This document shows positions 21,972 to 35,286 of a stretch of DNA of 64,000 nt, one piece after another. The DNA is from an uncultured virus (IMG/VR IMGVR_UViG_3300003815_000003) (lineage: Duplodnaviria > Heunggongvirae > Uroviricota > Caudoviricetes), in IMG/VR virus record IMGVR_UViG_3300003815_000003, one strand, 5' to 3'. Under the pieces are notes generated by a model that was not told where the DNA came from, did not search any database, and saw only the letters and a list, made by a program, of their open reading frames with translations. How positions within the stretch are numbered: position 1 is the stretch's first letter; each line of letters opens with the position of its first letter. The translations under genes were made by a program, and so were the position numbers.

Positions 21972-22609
21972 AACTTATCGGAATAACCGGAAATATTGCA
22001 AGTGGTAAATCTACCATTTCTAAAATGATTGCCGAACATTATAATCTACCATTAATTAATGTTGATGATTTTTCTAGGAATTGGATAAATTTATATCCTC
22101 TAAAGGTTGCAACTGCTCTTGAATGCTTTGGTTTCCGAGATTCCAGTATGAATGTACTTGATAATCTTATGAAAGTGGTTTTTACAAAGGAAGCCAACTA
22201 CGTTGATCCTGAATTTAAAAATAGTTCAAGGAGTTTTAAACAATTTTTTGAAGATTTAGTCGCAGATGATTTCTGGAATTATGTTAATCATTTTATGATT
22301 CCTGAATTTTATGATGCAATGATTATTGAACATCCAATTCTATTTGAAAAAGCAGATCAAGATAAATTCGATTTCATTATCGGTGTTGATGCAACAGATG
22401 ATATTCGTGTTGACAGAATGAAGAAAAGAGGTTATAGTCCTGCAACAACAAGGCAACGCTTAAATAATCAAATTCCTCTTTATCAAAATAAAGATAATAT
22501 TGATCTTATTTTAGATAATAATATTCCCCTTACCAAAGAAGAAATCATAAATGAACTATCAAATTCCAGAGAGTTTAAAGCCCTTATATCCCAAGGTTCC
22601 TTATCATAA
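21968..22609 (+). CDS. coaE: dephospho-CoA kinase
   Basis: IGITGNIASGKST P-loop, INVDD, EHPILFE, RL..Q; adjacent to coaD-like gene. Confidence 0.8.
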   Translation: MKLIGITGNIASGKSTISKMIAEHYNLPLINVDDFSRNWINLYPLKVATALECFGFRDSSMNVLDNLMKVVFTKEANYVDPEFKNSSRSFKQFFEDLVADDFWNYVNHFMIPEFYDAMIIEHPILFEKADQDKFDFIIGVDATDDIRVDRMKKRGYSPATTRQRLNNQIPLYQNKDNIDLILDNNIPLTKEEIINELSNSREFKALISQGSLS

Positions 22610-23507
22610 TCTTGCTCATACAGAATCATTTGATTGGGAATCCTGCCCTTCCGGTAATGCATATTGGGCAGCAGTATTCCATGACTTTGTTTATAATCCT
22701 AAAGTAAAAGGATTGGAAGGTAATGAGTTAGCTTCTTATAAAGCTTTTGAATCATATATGCGTAATAAAGGGGATTATTATCTCGCTTTTCCTAATTACG
22801 ATCAAGTTAAGAAACTAATTATGTCAACAATGGATCATGTGAAATATTTTGATCCAGATGATGAGGATATGGTTTGGCTTCACACCAATGATTTATTTTG
22901 TTTTCGAGATGGGGCAAATGTATATGAAAATGAATTGAAAATCTTCAAAGAATATCAATTCACTAAATTTGATTTCTATAAGGAACGTAGATTAGAATTG
23001 TTGAAATATTATCGAAAACACCCTCTTGTTCACTCAGAAAAGATAGATGAAATTGAAAATTATTTTAGTAATTTTATTCCTCATATTGGGTTATTCGTGG
23101 GAAGCTTCAATCCGTTCACCCGTGGGCATTTTGACATTCTTCAACAAGCAGAAAAGGTATTTGATAAGGTTATTATTGCTCAAGGACAAAATGAAGAAAA
23201 GGAAACCAATAATTATTCTCTTCATAATGTAAAGGCATTGGAATATCATGAATTGGATAGTTATGAAGGAAGTTTATTTTCTTATGTGGATAGAAAGAAA
23301 AAAGAACTCGGTAATATCACATTGGTTAGAGGATTGAGGAATTATCATGACTTACATGATGAAAGCAATCTATTTAATTTTGCCAAAGATTATACTGATG
23401 TTCCTTTTGCCTACTTTATTTCTAAATCAGAAAATCTACATATTAGTAGTGGAGCCGTGAGGAAATTAATATCATTAGGAAAAGACGTAAAGGAATATCT
23501 ACCATGA
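22551..23507 (+). CDS. coaD: HD-phosphohydrolase fused to phosphopantetheine adenylyltransferase (CoaD-like)
   Basis: N-terminal YHNLAH..FHDFVY..NE..S HD domain; C-terminal GSFNPFTRGH, LVRGLR, HISSGAVR CoaD motifs. Confidence 0.82.
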   Translation: MNYQIPESLKPLYPKVPYHNLAHTESFDWESCPSGNAYWAAVFHDFVYNPKVKGLEGNELASYKAFESYMRNKGDYYLAFPNYDQVKKLIMSTMDHVKYFDPDDEDMVWLHTNDLFCFRDGANVYENELKIFKEYQFTKFDFYKERRLELLKYYRKHPLVHSEKIDEIENYFSNFIPHIGLFVGSFNPFTRGHFDILQQAEKVFDKVIIAQGQNEEKETNNYSLHNVKALEYHELDSYEGSLFSYVDRKKKELGNITLVRGLRNYHDLHDESNLFNFAKDYTDVPFAYFISKSENLHISSGAVRKLISLGKDVKEYLP

Positions 23508-24567: not shown

Positions 24568-26286
24568 ATGTTCAATACAAAGAAAACCCAACTATTCGTT
24601 CCTCCTGCAAAGACTCCAAAATTTAAGTCTGTTGCAGAAATTACCTCATCTCCTTCAGCAAAAACTCCTTTGCCTATTTTTGTACAATCTGCTCAAAAGA
24701 AATCATTTGAAATTCTATCTGGCAACGGAGCCTTGAAGTACTCTTCAACTGGTAATGAAGGAGTAAATCAATTCGCTAAAGTAGGATCATATAAAAAGCC
24801 TCGGCCTTTTAACGAAATTGAAAAAGATTGTGAACTTCTTTGGGCAGAAGACCCTCTTAATTCTGTTAAATTTATTCATTATCTTCGCACTATCACTCGA
24901 AAAGTTCAACTCATTGATGGTTCTGTAACTGCTGAACCTCAAAAGGGAGGAGAACTTAAACACGAAGCAATCATGCGTATGATTTGGCTTTTCACTAAAA
25001 GCCCCGACACCTTTTGGAAGAATATTGGCTGGTTTATTGCTCTTGGTTCTTGGCACGACATCTTTACCATGTTGCAATATGATCTGGTTTATAATGGATG
25101 GGAAAGTCGTGTTTTAGATTGGAACAAGATGGGAAACGTTATTCTGGTTGGTCTTGCTGATTCTCATACCTCTGAACTGGTTAAGAAGTACCTTCCACAA
25201 ATTAAAGCTAGGTCTGATTGTAAGACGGTCGAAAGTCAAGCTAATACTACAATTGGAAAGTGGATTTGTTCTCTTCTGTTTGGTCCAAAGGAAACATCTT
25301 ATAATTATAAGACTTATCGTAAACTTAAATCAGGCGGTACTGCCCATCAGTGGCAACAATTGATTTCTCAAAAGAAGTTTGATCAAATTGATTTTGGTGC
25401 AATTCATGGACGAGCATTACATCTACTTGTTCGTAGTAAGTTCCTTAAGAATCAGAATTTATCAGATAAGTTTGCTACATGGGTCAAGAAACCGGATACA
25501 GTAGTAAGATATACTGGTTTCGTTCATGAATTATTCACTAATATTCCTACTGCATTATCTGGAATGGCAGCACATGTTCGGGATACCGTGAATAAACAAT
25601 TTGATACTCTTGTTGCTAAGGGGAAAAGTGAAACAAAAGAAGATTCTTGTACTTGGCTACCTGTGCTAGACACATCTGGCTCAATGGGAGCACAATGTAC
25701 AGGAACTAATGCTTCTTGTTTAACTGTTGCTAAGTCACTGGCATTATATTTCTCAGAATTCTTGACTGGAAAGTTTATGAATTCATTTGTTGAATTTAAT
25801 ACAAAGGCAAAGATGCATACGTGGCAAGGTGCTACTCCAATTGAAAAATGGTATAATAATCGTTGTTCTCATGTAGGAAGTACTAATTTCCAAAGTGTAA
25901 TTGATTTGTACGTTGATTTAAAGAATCAAGGAATTGAAGAAGCAGAGTTTCCTACAGGAATTTTAGCAATTTCCGATTCTGAATTTAATCCTACATCTTT
26001 AGGTAAAACTAATGTGGAAGTGGCAAGGGCCAAACTTCGTCAAGCCGGTTTTTCTGATACTTTTGTAGATAAGTTCCAGATTGTTCTTTGGAATTTACAA
26101 AGTGGATATTATGGTGCAAGTACTGGGAAGAAGTTTGAAACTGGGGCAACCGAGAAAGGTACTTATTATTTTGGGGGTTTCAATGGTTCAGTTATTTCGT
26201 TCTTAACTAATCATGAAGTTAAGACACCTGCTCAATTGTTCTTACAAGCATTAGATCAGCAAGTTTTAAATTATATTGAATTGTAA
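24568..26286 (+). CDS. DUF2828-family helical domain + vWA (Ro60/TROVE-like) protein
   Basis: NGA..SSTG, GSWHDI, KKYLP, YRKL in helical N-terminal part; MIDAS DTSGS, STNF, ISDSEF, IVLWNL in vWA. Confidence 0.8.
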   Translation: MFNTKKTQLFVPPAKTPKFKSVAEITSSPSAKTPLPIFVQSAQKKSFEILSGNGALKYSSTGNEGVNQFAKVGSYKKPRPFNEIEKDCELLWAEDPLNSVKFIHYLRTITRKVQLIDGSVTAEPQKGGELKHEAIMRMIWLFTKSPDTFWKNIGWFIALGSWHDIFTMLQYDLVYNGWESRVLDWNKMGNVILVGLADSHTSELVKKYLPQIKARSDCKTVESQANTTIGKWICSLLFGPKETSYNYKTYRKLKSGGTAHQWQQLISQKKFDQIDFGAIHGRALHLLVRSKFLKNQNLSDKFATWVKKPDTVVRYTGFVHELFTNIPTALSGMAAHVRDTVNKQFDTLVAKGKSETKEDSCTWLPVLDTSGSMGAQCTGTNASCLTVAKSLALYFSEFLTGKFMNSFVEFNTKAKMHTWQGATPIEKWYNNRCSHVGSTNFQSVIDLYVDLKNQGIEEAEFPTGILAISDSEFNPTSLGKTNVEVARAKLRQAGFSDTFVDKFQIVLWNLQSGYYGASTGKKFETGATEKGTYYFGGFNGSVISFLTNHEVKTPAQLFLQALDQQVLNYIEL

Positions 26287-26339: not shown

Positions 26340-26368
26340 TTGACAATGATAGTATGATGGGTTAAGTT
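26340..26368 (+). promoter_or_regulatory. sigma70-type promoter for ncRNA array
   Basis: TTGACA-N17-TAAGTT; no plausible downstream ORF before the terminator. Confidence 0.75.
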
Positions 26369-26380
26369 AGTATCAAGACA

Positions 26381-26433
26381 AGAGTTCTTACAGCAAATTA
26401 TAAATTCTGCTTTATAGAAAACAAAAGAACTCT
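26381..26433 (+). ncRNA. array unit 1 (Y-RNA-like stem-closed RNA)
   Basis: AGAGTTCTT / AAGAACTCT stem enclosing ACAGCAAA and a small hairpin. Confidence 0.7.
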
Positions 26434-26437
26434 GAAA

Positions 26438-26497
26438 AAGAGACGCACAGCAAACCAATTTACCTTTGTATTCGGCACAAACAAGTAAACGTCTCTT
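26438..26497 (+). ncRNA. array unit 2
   Basis: AAGAGACG / CGTCTCTT stem enclosing ACAGCAAA and TTTAC..TTTGT-loop-ACAAA..GTAAA hairpin. Confidence 0.7.
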
Positions 26498-26502
26498 GAA
26501 CA

Positions 26503-26556
26503 AGAAATCAAACTGCAAAACAAAAATTTATTGGCAAAATAAAACAAACGATTTCT
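26503..26556 (+). ncRNA. array unit 3
   Basis: AGAAATC / GATTTCT stem enclosing ACTGCAAA and TTTATT/AATAAA hairpin. Confidence 0.65.
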
Positions 26557-26560
26557 GATA

Positions 26561-26674
26561 AGAAGACAGTCCCGCAAATATAACAAAAAATCTATGTTCA
26601 AACAGAACCGAGAGCGTTCGATTCGCTCAACTTTATAACTTGGTGTTTGGTAAAGGTCAAAAAGTTAGTCTTCT
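26561..26674 (+). ncRNA. array unit 4, with tRNA T-arm
   Basis: AGAAGAC / GTCTTCT stem enclosing CCCGCAAA and GAGCG-TTCGATT-CGCTC. Confidence 0.7.
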
Positions 26675-26678
26675 GAAA

Positions 26679-26789
26679 AGGTTTTATACTGCAAATTAAA
26701 AAGCATTTCAAGCCGTTGGTCGAAGGTTCAAGTCCTTCCTCTCTATTTTAGAGAGTAGCTCAGTTGGTAGAGCAACGTAAACAAAACCT
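26679..26789 (+). ncRNA. array unit 5, circularly permuted tRNA-like (YrlA-like) RNA
   Basis: AGGTTTT / AAAACCT stem enclosing ACTGCAAA, then T-arm GAAGG-TTCAAGT-CCTTC, closed acceptor CTCTCTA-TTT-TAGAGAG, TA, D-arm GCTC-AGTTGGTA-GAGC. Confidence 0.85.
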
Positions 26790-26798
26790 GTTAAAACG

Positions 26799-26828
26799 AA
26801 AACCGACAAGTAAAGTTGTCGGTTTTTT
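26799..26828 (+). terminator. intrinsic terminator ending the ncRNA array
   Basis: AAAACCGACAA-GTAAAG-TTGTCGGTTTTTT. Confidence 0.85.
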
Positions 26829-32951: not shown

Positions 32952-33863
32952 ATGCTAAAAGAACTAAATAAAACTGAGTCGGGAGCCGTGATTTGCAGAT
33001 TTCAATGTCATGTGCTTCATGCTGCACATATCGACCTAATCAACACTGTCTTGGCTAAACATAGTCGAGTATTTGTTTTTCTAGGTTGTTCTCCTCTTCG
33101 TAATACTCCTAGAGCACCTTTAGATTTCAAACATAGAAAGGCTATGTTGGAAGAACAATTTGGTGATAAGCTAGAAATTCATCCTATCCATGATAATCGT
33201 AGTGATGAAGTTTGGAGTAAAAATCTAGATCGAGAAATTATTCGTCTTCTTCCTCCTGGGCAAAGTACTACTCTTTATGGTTCCCGTGATTCATTCATTG
33301 GACATTATAAAGGTAAATTTCCCACTTGTGAACTTGAATCCGAATCCTTTATTTCTGCTTCACAAGTAAGAAAAGAAATTATTACTAATTATCCTTCTTC
33401 TAAAGATTTTCGAGCAGGAATGATTGCAGCAACGGGGCAACATTATCCAACAGCATATCAAACCGTAGATGTTGCCGTAGTTAATGAAACAAATGATAAA
33501 GTTCTATTGGTTAAGAAACCGGGAGAAGATAAATGGCGTTTCATTGGAGGTTTCAGTGATCCATCGTCTAATTCTCTTGAAGATGATGCAAAACGTGAAG
33601 TAATGGAAGAAACAGGAGTGGAAATTTCTGAACCGGTTTATCTAGGTAGTTCCTTAATTAAAGATTGGAGGTACCGTAGTTGTACAAATAAGATAAAAAC
33701 CGCATTATTCATGGCAACATATAAATCAGGAACACCAGAAGGAGCAGATGATGTAGAAGCTGCAAAATGGTTTAATTTAAATGATTTAAACGAAAGTAAT
33801 GTTGTGGAAGAACATCATGTTCTCCTTAACTTATTCTTTAAAAAGGTTAAGGTGAAGGCGTAA
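32952..33863 (+). CDS. bifunctional NMN adenylyltransferase / Nudix (ADP-ribose) hydrolase (NadM-Nudix)
   Basis: RFQ..LHAAH (HxxH), ISASQVR, then TVDVAV and Nudix box GG..D....LEDDAKREVMEETG, GADD. Confidence 0.9.
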   Translation: MLKELNKTESGAVICRFQCHVLHAAHIDLINTVLAKHSRVFVFLGCSPLRNTPRAPLDFKHRKAMLEEQFGDKLEIHPIHDNRSDEVWSKNLDREIIRLLPPGQSTTLYGSRDSFIGHYKGKFPTCELESESFISASQVRKEIITNYPSSKDFRAGMIAATGQHYPTAYQTVDVAVVNETNDKVLLVKKPGEDKWRFIGGFSDPSSNSLEDDAKREVMEETGVEISEPVYLGSSLIKDWRYRSCTNKIKTALFMATYKSGTPEGADDVEAAKWFNLNDLNESNVVEEHHVLLNLFFKKVKVKA

Positions 33864-33894
33864 CCAATCAATAACATATATAGAAAATAATATA

Positions 33895-35286
33895 ATGAAA
33901 AAAGGTAATTTAATTCTGGCATGTGATTTATATAAAGTAGTTCATTGGCGACAAGTTCCAAAAAAAATTTCTTATATGCACTCTTATATTGAGGCAAGAG
34001 GAACAGAACTACCTAATGTAAATTATGTTCGTCCTTTTGGCATTCAGGGATTTATTAAAGATTATTTAGAAGGTGTTGTTATTGAACAATGGATGATTGA
34101 CGAAGCAAAGGAAATTCTAGGGGAAGTATTTCAAACTCATGAATACTTCAATGAAAAAGGATTTAGCGAAATTATTCGTCAATATAATGGGCGTTTACCT
34201 ATTACCATTAAAGCCGTAGAAGAAGGTAAGAAAGTAGGATTGAAAAATGTACTGGTTACGGTAGAAGCATGGGGCGAGTTTGCATGGTTAGCCACATGGA
34301 TTGAAACTATGCTGCTTAGGGCAGTTTGGTACGGCACTGCGGTATGTACTTTTAGTAGTGCATTGAAAGATATTGAACGTAAATATGCAAATCTCTGTGG
34401 ATGTCCCATGAATCCATTCTTTATTTGTGACTTCGGTGGTCGCTCAGTTTCTAGCCACGAATCGGCAGGTATTGGTGGAGCAGCACATTTAGTTAATTAT
34501 CTAGGCTCTGATACTGTTGAAGGTATTGTTTGGGCAAAACGTAATTACGGTCCTACTGCGACAGGTTATAGTGTGTACGCTTCGGAACACTCAACTAGTA
34601 CTATTTACGGTAGGGAACATGAAATTGATGCATATCGTCATTTCTTAAATGACGCACCAATGGATAAGATTGTCTCTATTGTAACTGATTCTTATAGCCA
34701 TGAAAATGCTGTTCGTAATATTCTTGGAAAAGAATTGAAAGAAGTTATTTTAGCAGGACATGCTAAAACTGTTATTCGTGGAGATTCTGGTGATCCACTT
34801 GATGTATCGCTTAAAACTTTGCAATGGTTGTGGGAAGATTTTTCGGGCGAAATCAATCCTCGTGGATTTAAAGTTCTTAATCCTAAAGTGCAATTACTTT
34901 GGGGTGACGGAGTAGATATAAACTCTTACGATGCTATTTTAAATTACATTACTTCTAATGGTTTTAGTTCTGAAAATATGTTTTTTGGAATGGGTGGTGA
35001 GCTTTTACAGAAAGCAAATCGTGATCGTTTTAAATTCGCTTGCAAACTATCTCATGCTATTGTAGATGGTGTTCCAACGGACATCTTTAAAGACCCTGAA
35101 GGCGATCATTCTAAACGTTCTAAAGCAGGTATCCTTAAACTTATTTATGAAAATGGACAATATCAAACAGTTCAAGCTCATGAACGACCTGACCTTAAAG
35201 ATGAATTAGAAGTAGTCTTTAAAGATGGTTATCTAATGAAAGAACTTACCTTTGAACAAATTCGCCAAAATGCAGCCAATACTTAA
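33895..35286 (+). CDS. nadV: nicotinamide phosphoribosyltransferase
   Basis: DLYKVVH, DFGGRSVSS.ESAGIGGAAHLVN, GSDT, ASEHST, SIVTDSY, IRGDSGDP, GDG, FGMGG. Confidence 0.93.
   Translation: MKKGNLILACDLYKVVHWRQVPKKISYMHSYIEARGTELPNVNYVRPFGIQGFIKDYLEGVVIEQWMIDEAKEILGEVFQTHEYFNEKGFSEIIRQYNGRLPITIKAVEEGKKVGLKNVLVTVEAWGEFAWLATWIETMLLRAVWYGTAVCTFSSALKDIERKYANLCGCPMNPFFICDFGGRSVSSHESAGIGGAAHLVNYLGSDTVEGIVWAKRNYGPTATGYSVYASEHSTSTIYGREHEIDAYRHFLNDAPMDKIVSIVTDSYSHENAVRNILGKELKEVILAGHAKTVIRGDSGDPLDVSLKTLQWLWEDFSGEINPRGFKVLNPKVQLLWGDGVDINSYDAILNYITSNGFSSENMFFGMGGELLQKANRDRFKFACKLSHAIVDGVPTDIFKDPEGDHSKRSKAGILKLIYENGQYQTVQAHERPDLKDELEVVFKDGYLMKELTFEQIRQNAANT

Follow-up and report, generated by a model that had tools for sequence, protein, structure and literature searches.

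Among described small RNAs, the bacterial and phage Y RNAs of the YrlA type (RF02553) are among those closest to the element treated here; searches of an open library, in which most subscription journals are absent, brought up no paper on the present RNA family itself. In these RNAs a T arm, a closed acceptor hairpin and a D arm follow one another in permuted order, with a Levitt pair, and the termini are paired into a stem; they measure about 110 nt, and several may be encoded per locus, on the same strand as a Ro60-fold gene and within a few kb of it (from the relevant parts of PMC4201824 and bioRxiv 10.1101/312249). In M. smegmatis, RNase P cleaves a YrlA RNA whose acceptor stem measures 7 bp, and this RNA acquires CCA (according to the passages used from PMC4201824), and the YrlA RNA of S. 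Typhimurium is described without an anticodon loop (bioRxiv 10.1101/312249, in part). The permuted tRNA genes of algae and archaea also present the 3' half first, with a closed acceptor loop and a complete tRNA sequence, and are turned into working tRNAs by a splicing endonuclease, as outlined in the latter source. Regarding phages, Thermus phage phiLo encodes a Ro60 together with the adjacent small RNAs Yrl1 and Yrl2; this protein is of the TROVE type, the motif of its RNAs is CGAA, and the parts of the report used here describe no tRNA-like cargo (PMC12135203). Protein gp130 of phage Bas63 was reported to be Ro60-like in structure and to counter the Ppl defence, and the same preprint guessed that some of the annotated tRNAs of this phage might be Y RNAs (bioRxiv 10.1101/2024.10.10.617714, in part). 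Finally, the Class I RNAs of dictyostelids (RF01414) are RNAs of about 55-65 nt, present in many copies, with a short G-started stem joining the ends, an ACAGCAA-containing motif next to the 5' strand, a variable A/U-rich middle and a C-U-G end in the Rfam consensus (PMC7919456, in part).

The window, i.e., the whole stretch of 64,000 nt analyzed here, is part of a 71.8-kb virus record with phage-type genes, including those for a ribonucleotide reductase and NAD salvage enzymes. Five tandem units are located on the plus strand between a gene for a 572-aa protein (24568-26286) and the ribonucleotide reductase gene (from 26902). In each of them a stem closes the unit, an ACAGCAA-type tag stands at a distance of one to three bases past its 5' strand, the cargo comes next, and the 3' strand is followed by TG. 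The first-pass annotation had covered a single unit, the fifth, which carries one cargo type of this larger array linked to the upstream gene. Unit 1 (26382-26434) has its ACAGCAA at 26390 and a 4-bp hairpin with the 7-nt loop GCTTTAT (26409-26415), in which a TTT triplet is present and C replaces U33. Unit 2 (26439-26498) has ACAGCAA at 26447 and a 5-bp hairpin with the 7-nt loop ATTCGGC (26470-26476), i.e., U33, TCG and G37. The A/T hairpin of unit 3 (26504-26557; ACTGCAA at 26512), at about 26526-26543, is ambiguous in its loop register, and no register combines U33 with a purine at position 37. Unit 4 (26562-26675; CCCGCAA at 26571) contains a canonical T arm at 26612-26628, no regular D arm and no such loop; close relatives of it are found in the related loci L002 and L083. 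U33 and purine 37 thus occur together only in units 2 and 5 of the five, which counts against a role of the loops as bait (see below). A candidate promoter of the array (26340-26368, plus strand; TTGACA, 17 nt, TAAGTT) and a terminator-like hairpin that would close it (26799-26828, plus strand; 11-bp stem, 6-nt loop, T run) were read from the sequence. The promoter is not listed by a consensus promoter scan because its -10 box matches at three of six positions only; a comparable arrangement is seen upstream of the L002 array. A terminator scan does not list the hairpin. No RNA run was among the sequencing runs listed as containing the array; two further freshwater runs have DNA contigs that cover it in part, one of these differing at 13 of 364 bases.

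Two side observations concern this neighborhood. Cargo of the unit-4 type, in which a canonical T arm is followed by a hairpin with a GG-containing, D-loop-like stretch and no regular D arm, was also seen at L002 6174, L083 3744, L041 5497, L071 4747 and L143 6085; cargo of this class might mimic the elbow in minimal form. Close to the locus, at 22551-23507 and 32952-35286, and among the neighbors of L040, L044 and L129, there are genes for NAD salvage and ADP-ribose (cytidylyltransferase-like, NadM-Nudix type, NAMPT, NADAR), a neighborhood of the counter-defence type.

Unit 5 (26680-26790, plus strand) is closed by pairing of 26680-26685 with 26783-26788, followed by TG, and carries the tag ACTGCAA at 26688-26694. 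Its cargo begins with tRNA positions 30-43 (26703-26716), composed of GC, the anticodon loop ATTTCAA with TTC at 26707-26709, and GCCGT. Positions 44-65 (26717-26738) comprise the variable loop and the T arm; the acceptor hairpin (26739-26755) comprises positions 66-72, a TTT loop and positions 1-7, without CCA; positions 8-29 (26756-26777) comprise TA, the D arm, A26 and an ACG that pairs with 26714-26716. None of the tRNA positions 1-73 is missing, and G15 and C48 are compatible with a Levitt pair. The arms proposed in the first-pass annotation were recovered at exactly the places it gave (CGT 26714-26716, TGGTC 26717-26721, T arm 26722-26738, 7-bp acceptor hairpin with TTT loop 26739-26755, TA, D arm 26758-26773, A, ACG 26775-26777), and its remark that no CCA follows the acceptor strand was correct. 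Its expectation that tRNA scanners would miss the element was borne out as well, since ARAGORN calls no tRNA in the unpermuted window; a co-linear cloverleaf with a free acceptor end, as in a canonical tRNA gene, was absent from the window by ARAGORN and Rfam. When native positions 26749-26777 were joined to 26703-26746, ARAGORN at its default threshold called a 73-nt tRNA-Glu(TTC) with a 5-bp anticodon stem, in agreement with the tRNA-like character claimed for the re-permuted sequence. The same cut applied at 127,840 window positions on both strands yielded 12 ARAGORN calls, all at the locus of unit 5. An earlier scan, in which the junctions were left free and the threshold was lowered, had given many anticodons, so that the register could not be fixed, and was superseded by this strict, native-only test.

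The loop ATTTCAA (26705-26711) is closed locally by G26703-C26713 and C26704-G26712, corresponding to pairs 30-40 and 31-39, whereas the strand for pairs 27-43, 28-42 and 29-41 is supplied from after the D arm; the break therefore falls between tRNA positions 29 and 30, inside the anticodon stem. The unit folds with z = -2.85. Pair probabilities are 0.77-0.99 for the T, acceptor, D and closing stems and 0.04-0.09 for the anticodon-stem pairs, which accordingly rest on comparative evidence. ATTTCAA had been taken for a vestigial TTC anticodon loop: the assignment and the register hold, "vestigial" does not, since the shape is kept among relatives while the triplet varies. The description of the element as non-chargeable is likely to apply to this copy, which has a 3-nt closing loop and no CCA, but it is not certain in view of the M. 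smegmatis YrlA with its 7-bp acceptor.

The YrlA-like topology that had been suggested is reflected in a match of the Rfam YrlA model to 26694-26800 (46.4 bits, E 3.7e-9), in which the tRNA core is aligned and the outer Ro-binding stems are mismatched; the score lies below the gathering score of 69, so that the unit is not a member by score. At the gathering score, Rfam finds nothing in the window, and no YrlA match reaches it in 20 related loci. Order of the arms, Levitt pair, paired termini, length, number of RNAs per locus and position on the strand of, and within a few kb of, a gene whose Ro60 fold is predicted here are all as in YrlA. Unlike YrlA, the units carry the ACAGCAA-type tag, and GNCGAA occurs within the first 30 nt in only 2 of 302 units; no GNCGAAN0-1G is found near a 5' end in the window array, the sole GNCGAA match (26719) lying inside the variable loop and T stem. 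Further differences are the candidate partner, which belongs to DUF2828/DUF7788 and not to TROVE, the mixed-cargo arrays, which include lone anticodon hairpins and unpermuted tRNA bodies, and the anticodon loop itself, which is kept in about one third of the permuted units. Unit 5 is not a YrlA RNA by Ro-binding motif or score; its candidate partner differs from the TROVE proteins in domain profile and resembles Ro60 in predicted fold. Compared with the algal and archaeal permuted genes, the order of the halves, the closed acceptor loop and the completeness of the tRNA agree; in the phage units, however, a conserved scaffold holds the ends and the site of the break varies. The element is a real feature and a variant of the Ro60-Y RNA kind, with a putative role.

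The 572-aa protein matches DUF7788 (E 2e-9) and, under the cut-off of that family, DUF2828 (E 5e-5) of Pfam, and belongs to PHROG_850. An AlphaFold2 model, computed from 56 sequences (pLDDT 84.6), consists of helical repeats and a C-terminal vWA domain with DTSGS at residue 368. In a fold search the 13 best PDB matches were all Ro60/TROVE chains (best E 1.9e-6, TM 0.47/0.55), the best one being the phiLo Ro60 (9kop), which, like the protein of the window, is a phage Ro60-fold protein encoded next to small RNAs. The structural match to Ro60 is moderate, with TM 0.31-0.47 by query. Ro60 was retrieved by the fold search alone, sequence searches against solved structures having found none; the TROVE profile matched 0 of 56 family members, and vWA_Ro60 weakly matched seven. 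The protein is predicted to form a Ro60-like ring. The family was found in 417 phage records at E <= 0.001. Among species genomes, cellular copies were seen at eight loci, each from a metagenome-assembled or binned record, and within one class they were seen in 2 of 301 genomes. With so few cellular copies, the clade looks mainly viral.

Relatives were drawn from 160 loci (the best 80 of 170 and the best 80 of 176), reduced to 138. A scan of these yielded 302 dereplicated units in 100 loci on the strand of the gene, compared with two on the opposite strand; no unit was found near the gene by this pattern in the other 38 loci. The recurring architecture is a G-started 6-bp stem, the ACAGCAA-type tag, a cargo, the second stem strand and a C-U-G end, and is tied to DUF2828/DUF7788 genes. 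As the scan had demanded a G start and a TG end, it was repeated without these ends: G was then found at position -8 in 202 of 294 array tags, and among 246 array tags with a 5-nt complement, CTG followed in 153 and TTG in 53 (206 together). Arrays contain up to seven or more units. Regarding the cargo of the 302 units, 173 are short, 32 clearly permuted, 25 long without arms, five have a D arm only, 46 a T arm only under a stricter D-arm pattern (several of these being also permuted), three to four hold unpermuted tRNA bodies, and 18 lie at the start of the gene. A covariance model, R1, was built from units selected for pairing, and therefore no claim of covariation is derived from it. True tRNAs are present in 34 of the 100 unit-bearing loci.

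Among cultured phages, homologues of the protein have 42% identity in one case and 21-25% in the others, and units lie near the gene in 8 of 11 regions by pattern and in 6 of 11 by covariance model. Munch, ME3 and one Vibrio phage showed none near the gene; their whole-genome pattern counts (3, 3 and 9) were similar to those of a reversed-pattern control (5, 2 and 9) and so give no sign of units elsewhere in these genomes. Viral contigs scanned for two adjacent tags gave 37 matches, 15 of them with a family gene within 4 kb; a further two (L175, L197) belong to contigs with a family gene just outside the locus, and many of the other 20 overlap long open reading frames and may be due to chance. 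Six of the pattern matches without a family gene (L163, L166, L167, L176, L184 and L190) have 369-aa open reading frames nearby in common.

Several unusual arrangements were observed in passing. Unpermuted tRNA bodies with D, anticodon and T arms occur as cargo at L129 5990-6100, L054 2936-3050, L017 4832-4965, L025 5236-5355 and L212 760-890; in some of these the scaffold stands in place of the acceptor stem, and the annotation of phage PBC2 lists one of them as a tRNA. At L144 2358-2471, Rfam recognizes a 114-nt tRNA with a tag-like insert in the anticodon region, i.e., a co-linear layout that is the reverse of the permuted one. Phage tmRNA genes adjoin arrays at L059 5922-6281 and L088 747-1236.

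Besides YrlA, the Class I RNAs share features with the units, namely the G-started closing stem, the ACAGCAA motif beside its 5' strand, the variable A/U-rich middle, the C-U-G end, the length of the short units and the many copies. The Class I model scores 33.9 bits in the window (unit 1, E 1.5e-4) and at best 40.5 bits in the relatives, the gathering score of 41.5 not being reached; in nine loci, Class I accounted for 15 of the 24 Rfam matches with E <= 1. According to the parts of PMC7919456 used here, the search behind that family covered eukaryotes and one bacterium, and outgroup hits of 25-40 bits under the authors' own model were rejected, so that the score alone shows no kinship with the phage units. 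Class I RNAs differ, moreover, in being described only in eukaryotes, where they are thought unique to dictyostelids, in being single genes with a DUSE promoter element, and in having the RRM protein Rnp1A as known binder, while neither an anticodon loop nor a DUF2828 partner is reported in those parts. DUF2828 is named in plant papers. One rejected Arabidopsis candidate in Table S4 of that report, ath_can_1, scored 40 bits and agrees with the units in stem, tag and C-T-G end, for which chance is possible in a large genome.

When the loci were scanned for a T arm, a hairpin and a D arm in succession, 58 of them yielded a total of 78 distinct permuted units, which without exception lie on the strand of the gene and include a few doubtful rows that were kept; 68 of these units have a short variable loop and were used for column shuffles, which ignore relatedness. 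Neither of two features was used in the selection: the Levitt pair is present in 66 of 68 (39 after shuffling), and Watson-Crick pairs 27-43, 28-42 and 29-41 are found in 48, 46 and 43 units (shuffles 23, 18 and 23). At least six of the seven acceptor pairs are formed in 71 of the 78, and CCA is encoded after position 73 in only 6 of 66 longer acceptor hairpins. On this comparative evidence, the tRNA core of the permuted units is under selection. A split anticodon arm, defined as a 7-nt loop with at least two local pairs completed by the strand after the D arm, is found in 28 of 68 units (shuffles 4.6, maximum 12 in 2000). Of these 28, 25 have U33, 24 a purine at 37 and 23 both (shuffles 0.8, maximum 5), compared with both in 11 of the 40 units without such an arm. 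A stricter definition retains 24 of the 78 units from 21 loci (median protein identity 53%), with the break after position 29 (11 units), 28 (nine), 26 (three) or 27 (one). The frame GC-loop-GCCGT seen in the window carries TTC, TGA, TCA, GGT, TGT, TCT or TTT in different phages. Because the shape of the loop is kept while the triplet changes, this comparison points to an anticodon loop that is maintained in the permuted units and is not debris. When junctions were left free, 73 of the 78 units yielded some ARAGORN call, a figure that was set aside.

A loop of exactly 7 nt on a stem of at least 4 bp is found in 96 of the 173 short units (dinucleotide shuffles 30.3, sd 4.7), and loops of 6, 8 or 9 nt are only mildly in excess. 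U33 and purine 37 occur together in 65 of the 96 loops (shuffles 5.4, maximum 14; within-loop shuffles 17, maximum 31); 77 of the 173 units are without the loop signature. Lysine anticodons are found in 23 of the 65 loops, from 22 loci, as against 12 of the 196 true tRNAs of the fetched loci; the loop and lysine counts are uncorrected for relatedness, and the latter is not freed of the bias of A/T-rich genomes towards TTT. U36 is present in 42 of the 65 loops and in 82 of the 196 tRNAs, and U36-A37-A38, which is characteristic of t6A-modified tRNAs, forms the end of 37 of the 65. Between units sharing a stem, positions 33 and 37 differ less (0.32 and 0.33) than positions 34-36 (0.43-0.57). Orthologous cargo is kept between distant phages.

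A connection between protein and tag is suggested by units at the start of the gene. Among 126 genes with a readable start, a full unit surrounds the start codon in 27, only its 5' half is present in five and only its 3' half in 19 (with the tag shifted by one base in several of these), and 75 have neither (Fisher p 1e-10, the genes not being independent). In the 27 units, exemplified by L008, L020, L022 and L036 within the first 50-75 nt of the DUF7788 gene, the ATG lies in the 5' strand and the 3' strand follows 25-110 nt downstream, in a region that is disordered in the model. The gene of the window itself has no such unit. The placement of the start codon inside a unit suggests, from sequence comparison, that the DUF2828/DUF7788 protein binds the tag; the start-codon units are likely to be a translational operator, best explained by self-regulation.

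Bas63 gp130 (Felixounavirus) is a member of the same family (26% identity over 379 aa with the protein of the window, E 4e-19), and four units are located in the tRNA cluster of this phage, between the tRNAs that its describers had considered as possible Y RNAs. They are placed at about 82070-82142, 82237-82300, 82692-82765 and 82780-82909 of MZ501086 and do not figure in the parts of the preprint used here; one of the four carries a permuted tRNA with an intact anticodon hairpin. In the data taken from bioRxiv 10.1101/2024.10.10.617714, expression of gp130 by itself is enough to rescue T7 from the Ppl defence, the g130 knockout has values of -2.9, -3.3 and -3.7 on Ppl and of +0.4 to +1.6 on 13 other sheets, and the g137 knockout is neutral on Ppl (+0.55 to +0.73). 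Since gp130 alone suffices and the g137 knockout, in which the overlapping permuted unit may be affected and three other units remain, is neutral, the anti-Ppl phenotype does not require the phage RNAs, and gp130 has an activity that needs none of them. It was also observed that bas63_0137, a minus-strand hypothetical gene, overlaps the plus-strand permuted-tRNA unit (L217 10781-10910, about 82780-82909 of Bas63) and may not be a protein gene. A tRNA-Ala knockout of Bas63, which looked harmful on Ppl, proved noisy on all hosts and was discarded.

The explanation preferred here is that unit 5 is a complete permuted tRNA, carried as cargo on units that likely bind the Ro60-like protein, and that its anticodon serves as bait for host enzymes attacking tRNAs; as a whole this is held tentatively, at slightly less than an even chance. 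A partnership of the units with the Ro60-like protein is by itself highly probable, and the bait role, once that partnership is granted, is marginally favored. The array would be transcribed and then processed into RNAs of 55-115 nt; the protein ring would bind stem and tag and thereby protect the RNA ends, and, in genes whose start codon is part of a unit, would repress its own translation and thereby adjust protein to RNA. The units would then display anticodon loops to host enzymes that cut or read tRNA anticodons. As unit 5 has its scaffold inserted within the 5' strand of the anticodon stem and its acceptor closed by a loop, the RNA would resemble tRNA-Glu to proteins reading the anticodon or the elbow and would not serve in translation. 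Bait is preferred because a plain tether needs neither U33 nor purine 37 nor switching triplets, and because tRNA-Lys is targeted by PARIS AriB and by PrrC, as stated in the consulted parts of the literature. A tether or gate is the reading that this argument addresses: on the model of Y RNAs, which link Rsr to PNPase and act as a gate of its ring (PMC4201824, in part), the units would control access of damaged RNA to the ring or recruit host decay or repair enzymes by their tRNA shape, the protein being the active counter-defence part and the anticodon loops recognition handles instead of sacrificial bait. The Thermus phage Ro60 and its RNAs dampen host PNPase, as far as PMC12135203 was used, gp130 is active without its RNAs, and some neighbors are RNA-repair genes, namely a Thg1 cluster (five loci) and an RNA ligase (two loci, and also beside the Munch homologue). 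None of these is a steady neighbor, however, the commonest neighbor cluster of the gene occurring at 11 of 138 loci; a canonical U33/purine-37 loop and a spread of anticodons are not required by such a role, and the YrlA precedent from S. Typhimurium has no anticodon loop (bioRxiv 10.1101/312249, in part). This reading is possible and rather unlikely.

The same display of loops could also act on the translation apparatus, competing for synthetases or anticodon-modifying enzymes or mimicking uncharged tRNA and so steering host translation. The excess of U36 (42 of 65 against 82 of 196) and the U36-A37-A38 ends in 37 of 65 are in its favor, but a lytic phage would itself need charged tRNA-Lys, and true tRNAs are also carried at 34 of the 100 loci; such competition is improbable. 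That the cargo is decaying tandem tRNA genes caught between scaffold repeats, with no role of its own and only stem and tag mattering, is less probable still. Dimeric tRNA transcripts were proposed as the origin of YrlA (bioRxiv 10.1101/312249, in part), some acceptor loops contain CCA and spacer-like sequence, and the loop signature is gone from more than half of the permuted units (40 of the 68 whose variable loop is short). Decay is contradicted by the covarying Levitt and stem pairs, the sharp peak at 7-nt loops, the lower variation of positions 33 and 37 relative to 34-36 where the stem is shared, and the orthologous cargo kept in distant phages. Least probable of all, and very unlikely, is a tRNA precursor from which the scaffold would be excised, positions 29 and 30 joined and the acceptor loop opened to give a normal tRNA-Glu, as in the algal and archaeal permuted genes. 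Such maturation would agree with the presence of all positions 1-73, the tRNA score of the joined form, the well-paired acceptors (at least six of seven pairs in 71 of 78), the RNase P cleavage of a 7-bp YrlA acceptor (PMC4201824, in part) and the raising of this route for YrlA in bioRxiv 10.1101/312249; the available part of the latter, though, also notes that a splicing endonuclease is not reported in bacteria. The break moreover wanders between positions 26 and 29, CCA is encoded in 6 of 66 longer acceptor hairpins only, the anticodon switches on an unchanged body, and most units are an anticodon hairpin alone, which could never become a tRNA.

If the bait explanation is extended to the family, DUF2828 proteins and ACAGCAA-tagged RNAs could constitute another branch of Ro60-Y RNA particles, the second one and as yet undescribed, in which phages display swappable tRNA cargo (a lone anticodon hairpin, a split-arm permuted tRNA or an acceptor-replaced body) on one protein-binding handle, tuned by anticodon against host anticodon nucleases and self-regulated at a start-codon handle, and of which the amoebal Class I RNAs would be eukaryotic relatives of the handle with an unrecognized DUF2828-type partner; this extension is speculative and, taken as a whole, unlikely. 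The results provide DUF2828/DUF7788 with a candidate RNA partner and a candidate binding motif, and describe a permuted tRNA that is broken within its anticodon stem and retains the loop. They also suggest bait RNAs as a means of countering immunity that cuts tRNAs, for which the described route, in the sources consulted in part, is cleavage-resistant or abundant tRNAs. The system is testable in laboratory E. coli, since Bas63 encodes the protein together with four units and a knockout library of this phage already exists. The handle may, in addition, offer a lead on the function of the amoebal Class I RNAs.
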